This document shows, one piece after another, positions 1 to 8,517 of a stretch of DNA of 8,517 bases. Source of the stretch: a virus (taxonomy: Duplodnaviria > Heunggongvirae > Uroviricota > Caudoviricetes); the IMG/VR virus record IMGVR_UViG_2619619131_000020, positions 1-8,517 of that record; one strand, 5' to 3'. The number at the start of each line of letters is the position of its first letter. Positions within the stretch are counted from its first letter, which is position 1. The position numbers and the translations under genes were made by a program. The notes beneath the pieces were generated by a model that had not been told where the DNA came from, did not search any database, and saw only the letters and a program-made list of their open reading frames with translations.

Positions 1-1513
<1,513 letters not shown>

Positions 1514-1546
1514 GTTCAGCGCGGAGTTTAAGCAGGTGGTGAACTG

Positions 1547-2245
1547 ATGCAGGATATTCACGAAGAAAGTCTGAGCGAGTCGGTTAAATCAGAGCAGTCA
1601 CCGCGGGTGGTACTCTGGGAAATTGACCTGACGGTGCAGGGTGGTGAGCGGTATTTTTTCTGTAATGAGCTGAATGAAAAAGGGGAGCCGGTCACCTGGC
1701 AGGGGCGGAAGTACCAGGCGTACCCGATTGATGGCAGCGGCTTTGAGATGAGCGGGAAGGGCAGCAGTGCCAGACCGTCGCTGACGGTGTCCAATCTGTT
1801 CGGTCTGGTCACCGGGATGGCGGAAGACCTGCAGAGTCTGGTGGGGGCCACGGTGGTCCGCCGCCGGGTGTATGCCCGTTTTCTGGATGCGGTGAATTTC
1901 GTTGCGGGCAATCCGGCGGCGGACCCGGAGCAGGAGTTGAGTGACCGCTGGGTGGTGGAGCAGATGTCGCAGCTGACAGCCATGACGGCCTCGTTTGTGC
2001 TGGCCACACCGACCGAGACGGACGGGGCGCTGTTTCCCGGTCGTATCATGCTGGCGAACACCTGTATGTGGACCTACCGCTCTGATGAGTGTGGTTACAC
2101 GGGCGGGGCTGTGGCGGATGAGTTCGATAAACCCACCACGGATATCCGTAAGGACAGATGCAGCAAGTGCATGCGCGGGTGTGAACTGCGCAGGAATGTC
2201 GGCAATTTTGGCGGTTTCCTTTCCATTAATAAACTTTCGCAGTAA
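1547..2245 (+). CDS. L: Minor tail protein L (lambda gpL-like), 232 aa, apparently intact
   Basis: The 232-aa translation (MQDIHEESLSESVKSEQSPRVVLWEIDLT...GGERYFFCNE...NVGNFGGFLSINKLSQ) matches lambda gpL in length and in conserved blocks as I remember them, including the C-terminal Cys-rich region (CGYTGG...CSKCMRGC). The start overlaps the M stop. Confidence 0.9.
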   Translation: MQDIHEESLSESVKSEQSPRVVLWEIDLTVQGGERYFFCNELNEKGEPVTWQGRKYQAYPIDGSGFEMSGKGSSARPSLTVSNLFGLVTGMAEDLQSLVGATVVRRRVYARFLDAVNFVAGNPAADPEQELSDRWVVEQMSQLTAMTASFVLATPTETDGALFPGRIMLANTCMWTYRSDECGYTGGAVADEFDKPTTDIRKDRCSKCMRGCELRRNVGNFGGFLSINKLSQ

Positions 2246-2255
2246 ATCCCGGTTT

Positions 2256-2999
2256 ATGACACAGACTGAATCAGCGATTCTGGCGCATGCCCGGCGGTGT
2301 GCGCCTGCGGAGTCGTGCGGCTTCGTGATAAGCACGCCGGAGGGGGAGTGGTATATCCCTTGTGTGAATATTTCTGCAGAGCCGGAGGCGTATTTTCGTA
2401 TCGCACCGGAAGACTGGCTGCGGGCAGAGATGCAGGGGGAGATTGTGGCACTGGTCCACAGTCATCCCGGTGGGCTGCCCTGGCTGAGCGAGGCTGACCG
2501 GCGGCTGCAGATAAAAAGCGCACTGCCCTGGTGGCTGGTCTGCCGGGGTGACATTCACAAATTCCGCTGTGTGCCACATCTGACAGGACGGCGCTTTGAG
2601 CACGGGGTGACGGACTGTTACACGCTGTTTCGGGATGCTTATCATCTGGCGGGGACTGAAATGCCGGATTTTCATCGCGAGGATGACTGGTGGCGCAACG
2701 GTCAGAACCTTTACCTGGACAATATGGCGGTCACAGGCTTTTACCGGGTGCCCCTGTCCTCTGCACAGGCGGGCGATATTCTGCTGTGCTGCTTTGGTGC
2801 TTCGGTACCGAACCATGCCGCCATTTACTGCGGCAACGGTGAGCTGCTTCACCATCTGCCTGAACAACTGAGTAAACGGGAGAGGTATTCCGAAAAATGG
2901 CAACGACGAACGCATTCTGTCTGGCGTCACCGCCACTGGCACGCATCTGCCTTCACGGGGATTTACAACGATTTGGCCGCCGCCTCAGCCTGTATGTGA
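2256..2999 (+). CDS. K: Tail tip assembly protein K (lambda gpK-like) with JAB/MPN and NlpC/P60 domain motifs
   Basis: The translation starts MTQTESAILAHARRCAPAESCGFV. A JAMM-type motif HSHPGGLPWLSEAD (H-x-H-x7-S-x2-D) is visible directly, as are NlpC/P60-type catalytic residues (Cys in GVTDCYTLF, His in VPNHAAIY). The start was chosen at the first ATG after the L stop, in frame with ORF 1995-2999. Confidence 0.85.
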   Translation: MTQTESAILAHARRCAPAESCGFVISTPEGEWYIPCVNISAEPEAYFRIAPEDWLRAEMQGEIVALVHSHPGGLPWLSEADRRLQIKSALPWWLVCRGDIHKFRCVPHLTGRRFEHGVTDCYTLFRDAYHLAGTEMPDFHREDDWWRNGQNLYLDNMAVTGFYRVPLSSAQAGDILLCCFGASVPNHAAIYCGNGELLHHLPEQLSKRERYSEKWQRRTHSVWRHRHWHASAFTGIYNDLAAASACM

Positions 3000-3532
3000 A
3001 CACGGCAGCGGAAGCCATTCGCGCCCTGTCGATGCAGATGCCGGGCTTTCGCCGTCAGATGAACGAAGGCTGGTACCAGATACGTATTGCCGGTGATGAC
3101 ACGGCACCGGAGGCGGTGTATGCCCGTCTTACGTCCTTCAGTTATGCCAATGCTGAGGATGAGCAAAAAACGCGCTACAGAGATACCCGCTGGCATGAAG
3201 ATTCCGTGCGTAACCGCTGGTTCAGCGTGATGGCGGGGCCGTCTGTACGCGTGAATGAATGGTTCAGCGCGTATGCGATGGCGGGTGTGGCTTACAGCCG
3301 TGTGTCGACTTTCTCCGGGGATTATCTCCGCGTAACTGACAACAAGGGGAAAACGCACGACGTGCTGACCGGAAGTGATGACGGTTGCCACAGCAACACG
3401 TCTCTGGCGTGGGGGGCTGGCGTGCAGTTTAACCCGACCGAATCCGTGGCCATTGATATTGCTTATGAAGGCTCCGGCAGTGGTGACTGGCGCACTGACG
3501 GTTTCATCGTGGGTATCGGTTATAAATTCTGA
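2897..3532 (+). pseudogene. In-frame chimera: N-terminal ~70 codons of tail assembly protein I fused to the C-terminal ~130 codons of outer-membrane protein Lom; J and the Lom signal peptide are missing
   Basis: N-terminus MATTNAFCLASPPLARICLHGDLQRFGRRL...WYQIRIAGDD resembles the lambda gpI N-terminus. From ~nt 3130 the translation SFSYANAEDEQKTRYRDTRWHEDSVRNRWFSVMAGPSVRVNEWFSAYAMAGVAYSRV...DGFIVGIGYKF matches the Lom/Ail-family beta-barrel C-terminus ending in aromatic F. No J-like ORF (expected >1000 codons) lies between. Confidence 0.7.
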
Positions 3533-3558
3533 TTAGCCAGGTAACACAGTGTTATGAC

Positions 3559-3586
3559 AGCCCGCCGGTTCAGGCGGGCTTTTTTG
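3559..3586 (+). terminator. Rho-independent terminator downstream of the I-lom chimera
   Basis: An 8-bp perfect stem AGCCCGCC (3559-3566) / GGCGGGCT (3573-3580) with a 6-nt loop GGTTCA is followed by a T-run at 3580-3585. Confidence 0.6.
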
Positions 3587-3596
3587 TGGGGTGAAT

Positions 3597-4811
3597 ATGG
3601 CAGTAAAGATTTCAGGTGTGCTGAAGGATGGTACAGGAAAACCGGTACCGGACTGCACCATAGAGCTGAAAGCCACGCGAACGAGTGAGACGGTGATAGT
3701 CACCACGGTGGCGCAGGGGCAGCCGGGGGAAACCGGCAGTTACAGTTTTGATGTGGAGCCGGGGTGGTACCGGGTGACGCTGAACACGGAAGGGTACGCC
3801 CCGTCGTATGTGGGTGACATTCTGGTGAAGGCGGATTCTGAGCCGGGAACGCTGAATAAATTTCTGATGGAACAGGATGAGGTGCAGTATTACCCGAAAG
3901 CGCTTGCAGAGCTGGAAGCGGTGGCAGCGGAAATCCTGAAGCGTGCTGAAGCGTCGGCGGCGAGTGCAGAGGAAGCGAAGGAACGGGCAGAGAATGCCCG
4001 GGGACCGGCGGGCGAGAAGGGGGACACAGGTCCACAGGGTGCCACAGGGGCACAGGGACCAGCCGGGGCAACGGGGGCGGTCGGACCAAAAGGTGAGCCG
4101 GGGCCAAAGGGAGAACGGGGAGAAACAGGTCCACAGGGACCGAAGGGCGATAAAGGTGACCCGGGCGGACCGCCGGGGCCGAAAGGGGATACGGGAGACA
4201 CAGGCCCGGCAGGACCACAGGGGCCGAAGGGAGATACGGGAGACACAGGCCCGGCAGGACCACAGGGGCCGAAGGGAGATACGGGAGACACAGGCCCGGC
4301 AGGTCCGCAGGGACCGAAGGGAGATACGGGAGACACAGGCCCGGCAGGACCACAGGGACCGAAGGGAGATACGGGAGACACAGGCCCGGCAGGACCACAG
4401 GGACCTAAAGGGGATGCGGGAGCTGCAGGCCCGGCAGGGCCACAGGGACCGAAGGGAGATACGGGAGACACAGGCCCGGCAGGACCACAGGGACCGAAGG
4501 GAGATACGGGAGACACAGGTCCGGCAGGACCTCAGGGACCGTCAGGAAGTCCTGACAGCGGACTGTTTGGTGTCGGTTCTTTTGTCCTTGCGGCATATTA
4601 TGCGACGAGTTATTCGGGGGATATGGCACCGGGCTCAGCCATTGCCGGCTCATCACTGTCTGCATGTTGCCTTTCGAATGGTACTCCCCTGGTTGCTTCC
4701 GGTAATGTGGGGGAGACCCGTTTACCGGGCACGTGGCGTGCATGTGGTCCGATGCTATGGACATCATCTCCGGGTATCAGACAGGCAGGATTATTTCAGC
4801 GCATATCATAG
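3597..4811 (+). CDS. stf: Side tail fibre protein (lambda Stf-like N-terminus, collagen-like Gly-X-Y shaft, distinct C-terminal domain)
   Basis: N-terminus [26 protein letters not shown] resembles the lambda Stf N-terminus. Codons ~136-320 are uninterrupted G-X-Y triplets ([13 protein letters not shown]...[15 protein letters not shown] repeated). The C-terminal ~90 aa are non-collagenous ([19 protein letters not shown]...GTWRACGPM...LFQRIS). Start taken at ATG 3597 rather than the in-frame GTG 3591; stop TAG 4809-4811. Confidence 0.8.
4179..4538 (+). repeat. Eight tandem copies of a 45-bp unit (CCGAAGGGAGATACGGGAGACACAGGCCCGGCAGGACCACAGGGR) encoding [15 protein letters not shown] inside stf
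   Basis: Direct reading: units begin at 4179, 4224, 4269, 4314, 4359, 4404, 4449 and 4494. Five are near-identical; the units at 4269, 4404 and 4494 carry a few substitutions. The period is a multiple of 3, so the reading frame is preserved. Confidence 0.85.
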
Positions 4812-4819
4812 AGGAGGTC

Positions 4820-5428
4820 ATGGTGGATAAGGGAAAAGAGATTCTTGCAGTACGAAATGCAGCCAGCAACGAATATGGCGGGATAAACTGTGAGGTGCAG
4901 TTTGAAGACGCGGTGAATGAAAAAGGGGAACAGGTATGGCTGCCGTATACTGCAACGGAAACGGATAATACAGAACACGGAAAAGCATTGTGGTCTGGGC
5001 TGACAGCAGGAACGTACGGAAGTGTGAGTGCCTTTGTCGCCACGGAAGCAGTACTGGAAGCGGCAAAAGCGGCGAAAAGGGAAGAGATTAATATCTGGCG
5101 TGATGTGCAGGAGAATATGGAATACATGATGGAATTCAACGGAAGGAACTGGGATTACGGCAAGAAGACGTTGTCCAGGATAAGCATGACACGCCTGATG
5201 GCAGAGAATAACCGTCTTCCGGAAGGTTTTGCTTGGACCGACGGGGATAATAATGTGGTGCCGGTGACGGCGGCAGACATCATAGCCCTGTCGGATGCGA
5301 CAGAGCAGGCGATGTTTGCGAAGGGGGTGGAGATTAATACACGGCAGTTGCAGATGAAAGCAGAGGTTGAGGCGCTGACAGAGCTGAAGGCGATCCGCAG
5401 TTACGTTGTTGGATGGCCTGCTGGCTGA
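4820..5428 (+). CDS. Putative tail fibre assembly / chaperone protein (DUF4376-like C-terminus), translationally coupled to stf
   Basis: A strong Shine-Dalgarno GAGGAGG at 4811-4817 lies directly after the stf stop, with ATG at 4820 (GTG 4823 is an alternative). The C-terminal block FAWTDGDNNVVPVTAADIIALSDATEQAMFAKGVEINTRQLQMKAEVEALTELKAIRSY fits the pattern I associate with DUF4376 fibre-associated proteins. It is not similar to lambda Tfa. Confidence 0.55.
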   Translation: MVDKGKEILAVRNAASNEYGGINCEVQFEDAVNEKGEQVWLPYTATETDNTEHGKALWSGLTAGTYGSVSAFVATEAVLEAAKAAKREEINIWRDVQENMEYMMEFNGRNWDYGKKTLSRISMTRLMAENNRLPEGFAWTDGDNNVVPVTAADIIALSDATEQAMFAKGVEINTRQLQMKAEVEALTELKAIRSYVVGWPAG

Positions 5429-5457
5429 ATAAAAAAACGGGACCACGACCAGTCCCG
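5429..5457 (-). terminator. Rho-independent terminator for minus-strand transcription (downstream of the ykgJ-like gene and int)
   Basis: Stem CGGGAC (5438-5443) / GTCCCG (5452-5457) with an 8-nt loop. On the minus strand the hairpin is followed by a T7 run (complement of A-run 5431-5437). On the plus strand no T-run follows the hairpin. Confidence 0.55.
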
Positions 5458-5569
5458 GAACCATGAGTTTTAGGGTATTAGTTTGTTATCATAGTTAGCG
5501 TGCTAAGTATGCCATGTCAGGTTGATTAGTGAAGTGATGTTGTTCGCATTTTTGCACGGCGGAGAATAT

Positions 5570-5895
5570 TCAGATTTTTGGAAATCCATATTTTTCCCGT
5601 GCGCGATTACATGCTTCATTTACGATGCTATTTTCGCCGGACATTGCGAATTCCCTGCATGTGGACGGTTTTTGTAAACAGAGCAATATGCGTTTTCTCC
5701 GGGGGGGGCCGGCAAGAGCGCCACATCGGGGATTTTTCTGATTGGTGCCGCGCATACAGCGATGAAAAGGAGATATTTGCTCAGTGAGACTGACCGAAAC
5801 CTTTCCGCCAGCATCGTCAGCTTCTGCCCAGTAAAAAGAGACGCGGAAAATGCACAACAGGCACCACACGTCATGCATGGATTCAGATTGCTCAT
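5570..5895 (-). pseudogene. YkgJ-family (CxxCxxCC, putative zinc/iron-chelating domain) gene interrupted by three frame changes
   Basis: Two overlapping minus-strand ORFs (5620-5895 and 5570-5902) each carry pieces of one family pattern. Frame a gives the N-terminal [10 protein letters not shown] and later CSVYKNRP; frame b gives [15 protein letters not shown]...[27 protein letters not shown] and the C-terminal [27 protein letters not shown]. Switch points coincide with homopolymer runs at plus-strand 5847-5850, 5701-5708 and 5669-5673. Family assignment is from memory of the motif pattern. Confidence 0.5.
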
Positions 5896-6115
5896 AATTC
5901 ACCAGTACAGCTATAAATCGTAAAGAGAACAGCGGTACATCGTATGTAAGAACGTACCGCGGCTGGCTGGTGAACTTCCGATAGTGCGAGTATTGAATGA
6001 TTTCCAGCCGTTACCGATTTTACTATGTTTTAGTAGAACACTTAGACAAAACTGAGACACACAAAGCTTTGTACTGGATTGCTAGGCTTTGTGCTATTCG
6101 ATAGTTTAAGGTCGC

Positions 6116-7273
6116 TCACTCTACCTTTTCATCAAGCCAGTCCGCCCACCACTGCATCATTTCTCTGCGCTTATCGAGATACTGTGCATGGTTGTAAATC
6201 CCGCGCACAGATCCGCCGTTGGCATGTGCAAGTTGCACTTCAATGGCGTCGGCAGGCCATTCGTGCTCGTTCATAATCGTGCTGAATTCATGCCTGAATC
6301 CGTGACCGCTTTCCAGACCTTCATAGCCGATTTGTTTGATCACAAGCAGTACAGCGTTCTCGCAAATTGGCTTCTTCTTATCGTTGCGCCCGGCAAAAAC
6401 AAACTCTGATACTGGTTTGGTGATTGAGCTTAGCATAGTGAGAAGTTCAACTACCTGGTCTGACATAGGAACCACATGAATTTTGCGTCCCTTCATCACA
6501 TTGGCGTCGATGGTGATAATCCTGTTTTCAAAATCGACGTTCTTCCATAGCATGGAACGAAGCTCTTTTGTTCTGAGGGCTGTGTAGCGTAAAACTTTGG
6601 TCGCAATGAGCGATACGATGCTTCCTGAAAATGTTGCCAGTGCTTTGTTAAATGCCGGGATCTGGTCTGCAGGAAGAAACGGGAAGTTTTTCTTGCGGTA
6701 TCCCTTCATGGCGTCAGCAAGGTCAGGTGCCGGGTTATATTTAGCCCTACCAGTAACAATAGCGTAACGGAAAACCTCGCCGCATCTTCTGCGGGCTTTA
6801 TTTGCTCTCTCCATTGCACCGCGATCTTCAAATCTGCGGATTACTTCCAGCAGTTGCATCGGCTCAATATCCTGAATTTCAAGGCCGCCGATGATAGGTA
6901 AAATGTCGTCATCAAACATTTTTGCAAGTTCAGTCGCATACCCTACTGACCATACTTGCTTCTTGTGCTCGTACCATTCCTTGTAAATCGCACTAAAGGA
7001 ATTGTTGTTAGACGAAGCCTTTTTCGCCTTTACCGGATCGATGCCAACCGAGATGTCTTTCCTCGCAGTCCATGCCTTATCCCTTGCCTCCTGCAAAGTC
7101 ATTAGCGGATATTTTCCTACGGTCAGGATTTTCTCCTTACCGTCAATCTTGTAGCGAAGCTGCCATACCTTTTTCCCTGACACAGGGACATAAAGGTACA
7201 GGCCATTACCATCGAGTAGGCGGTATGGTTTTTCTTTCGGCTTTGCTGCTTCAATCTGCTTAACGGTGAGCAT
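6116..7273 (-). CDS. intS: Tyrosine-type site-specific integrase (CPS-53 IntS-like), 385 aa
   Basis: Translation MLTVKQIEAAKPKEKPYRLLDGNGLYLYVPVSGKKVWQLRYKIDGKEKILTVGKYPL... has the C-terminal catalytic signature HGFRHEF (H-x-x-R) and a conserved Tyr in GIYNHAQY. It lies next to tRNA-Arg and yfdC, as IntS does in E. coli K-12. Start taken at ATG 7273 (385 aa) rather than the upstream in-frame GTG 7309. Confidence 0.88.
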   Translation of the reverse strand: MLTVKQIEAAKPKEKPYRLLDGNGLYLYVPVSGKKVWQLRYKIDGKEKILTVGKYPLMTLQEARDKAWTARKDISVGIDPVKAKKASSNNNSFSAIYKEWYEHKKQVWSVGYATELAKMFDDDILPIIGGLEIQDIEPMQLLEVIRRFEDRGAMERANKARRRCGEVFRYAIVTGRAKYNPAPDLADAMKGYRKKNFPFLPADQIPAFNKALATFSGSIVSLIATKVLRYTALRTKELRSMLWKNVDFENRIITIDANVMKGRKIHVVPMSDQVVELLTMLSSITKPVSEFVFAGRNDKKKPICENAVLLVIKQIGYEGLESGHGFRHEFSTIMNEHEWPADAIEVQLAHANGGSVRGIYNHAQYLDKRREMMQWWADWLDEKVE

Positions 7274-7318
7274 GGGTAAAAATCCGGTGGGTAAAATTAT
7301 TTTATCCACTTTTTACCC
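7274..7318 (-). promoter_or_regulatory. Cluster of three GGGTAAAA motifs in the int leader, candidate operator or arm-type sites
   Basis: Direct copies of GGGTAAAA at 7274-7281 and 7289-7296, plus an inverted copy TTTTACCC at 7311-7318; the first copy abuts the int ATG. Function is inferred only. Confidence 0.25.
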
Positions 7319-7434: not shown

Positions 7435-7509
7435 TGGTGTCCCCTGCAGGAATCGAACCTGCAATTAGCCCTTAGGAGGGGCTCGTTATATCCATTTAAC
7501 TAAGAGGAC
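7435..7509 (-). tRNA. argW: tRNA-Arg (anticodon CCU), argW
   Basis: The reverse complement of 7435-7509 is GTCCTCTTAGTTAAATGGATATAACGAGCCCCTCCTAAGGGCTAATTGCAGGTTCGATTCCTGCAGGGGACACCA (75 nt). It has a 7-bp acceptor stem (GTCCTCT/AGGGGAC), anticodon loop CTCCTAA with anticodon CCT, T-loop GGTTCGATTCC and an encoded CCA end. Confidence 0.95.
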
Positions 7510-7584: not shown

Positions 7585-8517
7585 TTATGCCGGGTTTTTA
7601 TAATTTTTCTTAATGTTTTCCGCACGTTCTGCTTTTTGGCGTGCTTCTGCTTTACGCTTATTGCTCATGTCGTTACGAATCTGTGCATGACTCATTAACG
7701 CGAAGATAAAGGTGCCGCCGCAGATGTTCCCCGCTAAAGTAGGTAGTGCGAAGGGCCAGATGAAATCGCTCCAGTGCAGCGTACCGTTAAACACCAGATA
7801 GAGGATTTCAACAGAACCGACCACGATATGGGTGGTGTCACCCAGGGCAATAAGCCAGGTCATCAATATAATCACCACAATCTTTGCCGCACCCGCTGCA
7901 GGAAACATCCAAACCATAGTGGCGATCAGCCAGCCGGAAATGATCGCGTTGGCAAACATCTCGCTGGGGGTGTTCTTCATCACATCCATGCCGATTTTGA
8001 CAAATGCATCGCGAGTTTCTTCATTGAAGATAGGCATATATTCAAATGCCCACGCCGCAATACCTGTCCCGAGAATATTACCCAGCAGCACGACGCCCCA
8101 TAACCGTATAAGTAAGCCGACGTTGCTCATTGTCGGTTTTTGCATGACGGGTAGTACCGCAGTCACGGTATTTTCGGTAAATAATTGCTGGCGGGCCATA
8201 ATGACGATAATAAAACCAAAGGTATAACCGAGATTCTCCAGCAAGAAGCTGCCCGGCACACCTTCCAGTTCGACTTGAAATATCCCTTTTGCCAGTAACG
8301 AAGCGCCCATCGACAGACCCGCCGCAATGGCTGACCACAGTAGCGCCATTGCGTCGCGTTCCAGCTCTTTTTCACCATCCTGGCGGATATGCTCATGAAT
8401 TGCCATCGCCCGGGAGGGGAGTCGGTCTTCATCTATTTCTATTTTTTTGCCGCGCTCTTTTTCTTCGCTCTCAACTTCAATTTCGTCGCTGTGTTGATCA
8501 ATTTTGTCGTTGTCCAT
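7585..8517 (-). CDS. yfdC: Formate/nitrite transporter family inner-membrane protein YfdC, 310 aa
   Basis: The 310-aa translation MDNDKIDQHSDEIEVESEEKERGKKIEIDEDRLPS... is followed by multiple hydrophobic transmembrane segments, consistent with E. coli YfdC. Its position next to argW fits the K-12 gene order yfdC-argW-intS. The start codon is the last three bases of the window, so an upstream extension cannot be excluded. Confidence 0.88.
   Translation of the reverse strand: MDNDKIDQHSDEIEVESEEKERGKKIEIDEDRLPSRAMAIHEHIRQDGEKELERDAMALLWSAIAAGLSMGASLLAKGIFQVELEGVPGSFLLENLGYTFGFIIVIMARQQLFTENTVTAVLPVMQKPTMSNVGLLIRLWGVVLLGNILGTGIAAWAFEYMPIFNEETRDAFVKIGMDVMKNTPSEMFANAIISGWLIATMVWMFPAAGAAKIVVIILMTWLIALGDTTHIVVGSVEILYLVFNGTLHWSDFIWPFALPTLAGNICGGTFIFALMSHAQIRNDMSNKRKAEARQKAERAENIKKNYKNPA

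Follow-up and report, generated by a model that had tools for sequence, protein, structure and literature searches.

The window analysed here, i.e. the whole stretch of 8,517 nucleotides, carries on its minus strand a ykgJ-like gene (5570–5895) whose recognizable family blocks are distributed over two reading frames. This raises the question of whether the gene is broken in the organism itself, only in its assembly, or read in some less direct manner. The gene begins with an ATG at 5893–5895, and its native stop codon, a TGA at 5570–5572, lies in the second frame only. Translation of the minus strand bears out the alternation of frames reported in a preliminary description of this DNA: frame A, the frame of the ATG, extends from 5895 to 5851 and carries the peptide CMTCGACC, frame B continues from 5850 to ~5709 and ends in ALAGPP, frame A resumes from ~5708 to 5669, and frame B closes the gene from 5668 to 5570 with GFPKI immediately before the stop. 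Such a succession of YkgJ-like blocks lies far beyond chance.

The family assignment made in the same description also holds. The ykgJ gene of Escherichia coli K-12 together with its upstream region aligns with the window from 5586 to 6023 (438 nt, 85% identity, E 1e-141), and repair of the frame yields a protein of 109 aa, close to the single open reading frame of ~110 aa that had been anticipated. This repaired translation matches PF03692 with 43.2 bits (cutoff 23, E 6.8e-11) over profile positions 1–85 of 85, and its cysteines in HRCM, PRC, YC, STC and EAC occupy the positions seen in K-12. The N-terminal CxxCxxCC motif of the YkgJ/PF03692 family is present in the window as the CMTCGACC mentioned above. 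Neither of the raw open reading frames found a match in Pfam, and the repaired 109-aa protein found none in NCBIfam at E<=1e-5. With three frame-disrupting indels, the window allele has no single open reading frame that spans the whole domain, and the locus is best regarded as a pseudogene of the YkgJ family rather than as one of its functional members.

The nature of these indels becomes apparent when the window is compared with a reference state defined by K-12 ykgJ and the intact prophage copies L008, L010 and L011 (from IMG/VR) as well as L024, L026 and L027 (from complete genomes), the latter three being annotated as intact 109-aa “YkgJ family cysteine cluster protein”. Lesion 1 shortens a T5 run to T4 (−1; A4 on the plus strand, 5847–5850) just after the CxxCxxCC motif; T5 is found in K-12 and all intact prophage copies, and the broken lineage, including the window, has T4 throughout. 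Lesion 2 extends a C7 tract to C8 (+1; G8 on the plus strand, 5701–5708), the intact C7 being read as GGC CCC CCC, i.e. Gly-Pro-Pro. Lesion 3 is the loss of one CCGT unit (−4; ACGG remains on the plus strand, 5665–5668) at a site where intact prophage copies have CCGTCCGT, that is (CCGT)2, and K-12 has TCGATCGT. The three runs to which the breaks had originally been ascribed (A4 at 5847–5850, G8 at 5701–5708 and T5 at 5669–5673) are all located as described. The accompanying proposal that one base was gained or lost at each of them is correct for the first two sites and has to be revised for the third, where the deletion adjoins the T5/A5 run at 5669–5673 and lies outside the run itself. One added base would restore the frame there, but the ancestral state is four bases longer. 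Hence, two of the three lesions are homopolymer indels and the third is a tetranucleotide tandem deletion. All three have the appearance of typical slipped-strand products, from which we infer the mechanism. Since lesion 1 separates the CxxCxxCC motif from the rest of the domain, a functional domain would be lost, and the window allele is not expected to give rise to a functional YkgJ-family protein.

Two overlapping open reading frames result from this combination, one from 5620 to 5895 (91 aa, ATG) and one from 5570 to 5902 (110 aa, GTG). The second, which was missed in the preliminary description, corresponds to frame B, which beyond a GTG at 5902 meets no stop before that at 5570–5572, i.e. 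remains open for 110 codons, because lesions 2 and 3 amount to a net change of −3. This reading frame, like the long ones of the C6 and C9 alleles discussed below, was considered as a new functional protein and rejected, as the tract lengths display no frame preference. In addition, the GTG at 5902 sits within the native Shine–Dalgarno region, which likewise speaks against such a protein. An exact look-up of the broken reading frames (91, 110 and 107 aa) in the protein collection returned nothing, which is uninformative because NCBI records leave pseudogenes untranslated. An exact 30-mer scan of the contigs of one genome per species likewise gave no match. A terminator-like hairpin (5457–5438) followed by a T7 run is oriented for the minus strand (5431–5457; consensus scan only). 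It is located some 110 nt beyond the ykgJ′ stop, directly after the stop of the neighboring DUF4376 gene, and is a possible shared or bidirectional terminator.

The lesions are not confined to the window. T4 together with a single CCGT is shared by 7 complete E. coli genomes, 11 IMG/VR loci and 4 metagenome contigs. Many of the matching assemblies may stem from related strains, and there are therefore fewer independent observations than loci. Among the complete genomes are NMBU-W12E19, cM8a, TOE17, O111:H21 15A and 55989 (L001–L005), in all five of which PGAP labels the gene “YkgJ family cysteine cluster protein, frameshifted”, while JKHS016 and JE86-ST02 are counted on the basis of identity and length. 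The prophages that carry the broken allele are integrated at four or more sites, namely argW/intS (the window, L014 and L015), the pao locus (L001), btsS (L002, L003) and tRNA-Ser/hyaA (L004, L005). Two of these loci, L014 and L015, which judging by their contig names come from two further IMG genomes, match the window with 100% identity over 5300–6400 including the G8 run. They differ from it further left, outside this interval, and hence represent separate assemblies. The comparison with the orthologous locus in related genomes, which had been proposed as a check, therefore returned both outcomes: the same T4/single-CCGT lesions in some copies and intact T5/C7/(CCGT)2 versions in others.

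Taken together, the locus is with a probability of about 0.9 a genuine inherited pseudogene, that is, a prophage paralogue of the chromosomal ykgJ that was broken by slippage and has spread between prophages. In this scenario, ykgJ and 128 bp upstream of it would have been taken from the chromosomal ykgJ-ecpE region and become part of the cargo that lambdoid prophages carry at their tail-fibre end. The 5′ 208 bp could later have been refreshed via recombination with the chromosomal copy. In one prophage lineage, three slipped-strand events would have changed T5 to T4, C7 to C8 (in a tract that is still drifting) and (CCGT)2 to (CCGT)1, before the broken allele was passed on by recombination to prophages at several integration sites. 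The state of the surrounding prophage, which is itself wrecked by portal::FII and I::Lom fusions, provides supporting context. On the other side, some polypeptide could still be made from the 110-aa frame-B reading frame or from the long reading frames of the C6 and C9 alleles. In essence, a decaying prophage carries an ordinary pseudogene that had already been annotated.

What was lost can be judged from the intact relatives. One exact 109-aa sequence of the intact prophage type is present on 640 contigs, and 48 of the 53 lower-identity rows in an alignment listing of ykgJ copies have a length consistent with an intact gene. The dN/dS ratio is 0.06–0.09 between the prophage type and K-12 and 0.04–0.08 among more divergent intact prophage types, so that the YkgJ family represents a real gene with purifying selection acting on its intact copies. 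For the repaired window sequence versus the intact L024, dN/dS is 0.20, which is consistent with a recent relaxation, the numbers (7 nonsynonymous and 9 synonymous changes) being small. The window lineage is not the only one in which the gene decayed. L006 (O104:H4; 3121–3381) combines T4 with a 69-bp deletion, and L023 combines T4 with C10 and an extra C. In L030 and L036, a one-base loss at the same CCCCGG spot results in a different frameshift and is accompanied by a Cys>Tyr exchange and a premature stop; in L025, which is taken up below, C8 is the sole lesion. In VT1-Sakai (L028, 2370–2570) only a 5′ remnant is left, which is annotated as “similar to E. coli K12 YkgJ”. Judged from these sequences, the prophage ykgJ has been inactivated repeatedly and independently.

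The genomic surroundings fit a cargo gene of a degraded lambdoid prophage. A heavily deleted lambdoid late region on the plus strand (491–5428) consists of portal::FII, L, K, I::Lom, a collagen-like tail fibre gene and the DUF4376 gene, and is followed by the ykgJ pseudogene on the opposite strand, an IntS-type prophage integrase (6116–7309, minus strand), the tRNA-Arg(CCT) gene argW (7435–7509) and yfdC (7585–8517). The pseudogene thus occupies a cargo slot between the tail-fibre genes and intS/argW. L029 is arranged in the same manner, with a protein kinase (named NleH1-1) and an IS1 in the slot. Within the late region, the reading frame at 491–1513 (340 aa) joins ~185 N-terminal residues of a portal protein of the lambda type to the head–tail joining protein FII, with a junction near 1117–1140, so that most of the head-gene region must have been deleted. 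L014 and L015 share window positions 1117–1387. In a second fusion (2897–3532), the start of the tail assembly protein I continues at ~3133 into an outer membrane protein of the Lom/Ail type, of which the C-terminal two-thirds are present; the whole J (tail tip) gene has been deleted. The tail-fibre reading frame (3591–4811) contains a 45-bp tandem repeat encoding collagen-like units (8.5 copies, 4160–4541, 91% matches), whose number of copies probably differs from one prophage to another. At a coverage of >=80%, the overall arrangement of the window was found in no complete E. coli genome. The window ends at 8517 exactly on the ATG of yfdC, and the two IMG/VR contigs L014 and L015 end at the same base. 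The window is thus probably a predicted provirus that was trimmed at gene boundaries and includes the host genes yfdC and argW.

The DNA upstream of the pseudogene opens the alternative that survives best. It consists of 128 bp (5896–6023, minus strand) derived from the chromosomal ykgJ-ecpE intergenic region, a homology that ends abruptly at 6023/6024. All other prophage copies as well as K-12 diverge from the window at 6023, where the intS module starts. Identity to K-12 amounts to 96.2% over 5816–6023, i.e. the 5′ 80 nt of the gene and the 128 nt upstream, versus 74.8% over 5586–5815, which points to a mosaic generated by recombination or gene conversion of the prophage with the chromosomal ykgJ. 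An 87-bp piece of this region (5937–6023) is also located next to intS in L029 (10104–10569) and occurs twice in L020 (including 601–687). According to Nakamura et al. (PLoS Pathog 2021; PMC8112680), prophage ykgJ/ecpE-like sequence holds a 96-bp site, attB-in-PP_2, that is used by other lambda-like phages, and the ykgJ-ecpE-derived segment was inferred to have been acquired more than once. With its ykgJ-ecpE homology at the tail-fibre end of a lambdoid prophage, the DNA at 5896–6023 belongs to this segment, which is hence already known. The 87-bp piece may overlap attB-in-PP_2. The site is probably truncated in the window, as the homology is estimated to stop partway through it, the published sequence being given in figures only.

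Conceivably, the segment is kept for the sake of its DNA, as a secondary attachment or recombination site, with the gene as a decaying passenger. This idea is compatible with an inherited pseudogene, and it is in line with the published site, the retention of the 128 bp, the additional occurrences of the 87-bp piece and the situation in VT1-Sakai, where a truncated ykgJ remnant and the intergenic region are all that is retained. It is nevertheless unlikely, given that the homology in the window is estimated to cover the site in part, that the window has no prophage integrated at the segment, and that the protein is clearly under purifying selection in intact copies. In the annotation supplied by the depositors of VT1-Sakai (L028, 2727–3041), a LexA SOS box and a promoter serve both the ykgJ remnant and a dinI-like gene. 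The SOS response may therefore induce some of the prophage ykgJ copies along with dinI; the window itself has no dinI-like gene.

A second alternative arises from the poly-C tract. In the T4/single-CCGT background, the tract is present as C6 in five copies, C7 in three, C8 in seven, C9 in three, and C10 and C11 in one each, and one broken-background copy has an interrupted C tract (CCCTCCCC). This spread from C6 to C11 is found among copies with flanks of >=97% identity. The sequenced copies with an intact background all have C7 with the exception of L025 (2511–2841), in which C8 is the only lesion; this copy is annotated as frameshifted and its protein is cut to 66 aa. If lengths from the identity/length listing are included, about 85% of the intact-background copies have C7. 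Fisher's exact test of tract length against background gives p = 0.012 for the sequenced copies and 7e-6 with the alignment-listing lengths added, values that are indicative only, as the copies are not all independent. The drift of the tract in dead copies fits relaxed selection in a dead gene.

These data also invite the interpretation that ykgJ is a phase-variable contingency gene, in which the poly-C tract would serve as a slip-strand ON/OFF switch of a prophage cargo gene, with C7 as the ON length. The hypervariability of the tract would suit such a role, as would L025 and a 66-aa member with 3 NCBI accessions in the cluster of the intact protein. For the window this is very improbable. 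Two fixed frameshifts flank the tract in its lineage, and no allele of the broken lineage encodes the full domain, whatever the tract length. A repeat length that toggles between an intact and a truncated reading frame is found in the separate intact lineage only (C7 in L024 versus C8 in L025). Moreover, the tract is missing from other intact members, with GGAACTCCGGGT in L027 and GGAACCCCGGGC in K-12, and is therefore a recent lineage-specific run rather than a conserved switch, and the prevalence of C7 in the intact background resembles purifying selection with occasional slippage. That the C7 tract of the intact prophage gene is a genuine ON/OFF switch, which was later locked off in the window allele, is quite improbable as well. 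If this were the case, expression of the prophage YkgJ-family protein would vary from cell to cell among E. coli lambdoid lysogens, and E. coli would offer an unusual instance of a prophage cargo gene whose phase variation is based on a homopolymer.

The third alternative is a sequencing or assembly artefact, i.e. a gene that is intact in the organism and three breaks that are base-calling errors at repeats. The preliminary description took the clustered breaks as the classic signature of such errors and named genuine decay as the other option. It is this latter option that prevails. Homopolymers of the length of G8 are error-prone on some sequencing platforms, all three lesions are situated at or beside short repeats, G8 is the longest homopolymer in the window, and part of the variation in tract length between assemblies could be technical. 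Still, an artefact is extremely improbable. Complete genomes, isolate drafts and metagenomes together provide at least 22 other loci with identical lesions 1 and 3, in prophages at different sites, and neither a T4 run nor a 4-base tandem unit is a typical error site. Two other assemblies, L014 and L015, reproduce the window exactly, G8 included. Furthermore, a uniform homopolymer sequencing error would ignore the genetic background, so that confinement of the tract drift to the already broken background speaks against error. For lesions 1 and 3, the artefact reading is thus essentially refuted; an error private to the assembly of the window is excluded for these two and unlikely for the length of G8. 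The related warning that other frame calls in the window deserve caution can be set aside, since G8 at 5701–5708 is the sole homopolymer of at least 8, the remaining odd reading frames are explained by large deletions, and no homopolymer-linked breaks were found in the other genes of the window. For quality control this means that the frame breaks are biological and that other gene calls in the window are not put in doubt. The drifting tract in dead copies versus C7 in live ones offers a clean example of how decay can be told from error without reads.

Lastly, programmed recoding would have the protein made via ribosomal frameshifting or transcriptional slippage at the runs. In favor of this reading, the breaks fall on slippery-looking runs, and the alternative frames are open for long stretches. 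Its probability is nevertheless negligible. Three such events within 330 nt would have no precedent, and intact homologues consist of one simple reading frame each. In the broken lineage, all three frame classes are represented among the tract lengths, so that the frame relation is not conserved. Furthermore, a canonical X XXY YYZ heptamer is missing at lesion 1, and lesion 3 is a deletion of 4 bases.

The inherited pseudogene can finally be placed among known systems. A prophage ykgJ that is common and under purifying selection where intact constitutes a legitimate, if modest, study target. A slip-strand phase-variable contingency locus, the gene neuO of the argW prophage CUS-3 (E. coli K1), resembles the window in that a prophage cargo gene contains a hypermutable simple repeat within its coding region. 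It differs in that the repeat of the window cannot switch the gene on owing to the two flanking fixed frameshifts, and in that the tract is not conserved in the family. Stx phages match window positions 5806–6020 at about 83–84% and share with the window the chromosomal ykgJ/ecpE origin of this DNA and its position at the tail-fibre end. Their copies (VT1-Sakai AP000400, H0002 “similar to YkgJ”) comprise the first ~114 bp of ykgJ and 193 bp with homology to the K-12 intergenic region, with a dinI-like gene upstream, whereas the window keeps the whole gene and only 128 bp of the intergenic region, joined to the intS module. The K-12 ykgJ (b0288, 109 aa, PF03692 putative zinc/iron-chelating domain) has the same length and architecture as the repaired window copy. 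The latter, unlike K-12 ykgJ, is borne by a prophage, is ~75% identical over the 3′ two-thirds and carries the three indels. K-12 has no poly-C tract, with GGAACCCCGGGC where the window type has GGCCCCCCC. In a transposon study, K-12 ykgJ was tied to biofilm fitness and filamentation (PMC8743551), and in FliB a related cysteine motif binds a [4Fe-4S] cluster (PMC8598068). A sequence search for a solved structure of the YkgJ family returned none. Further parallels are the intact prophage genes encoding WP_032169753.1, WP_074015512.1 and WP_022581964.1, which are 89–93% identical to the window at the DNA level. Like the pseudogene, they are located directly after the DUF4376 tail-fibre gene, on the opposite strand and as the last gene before the prophage end, but they have retained intact 109-aa reading frames with T5, C7 or no tract, and (CCGT)2.
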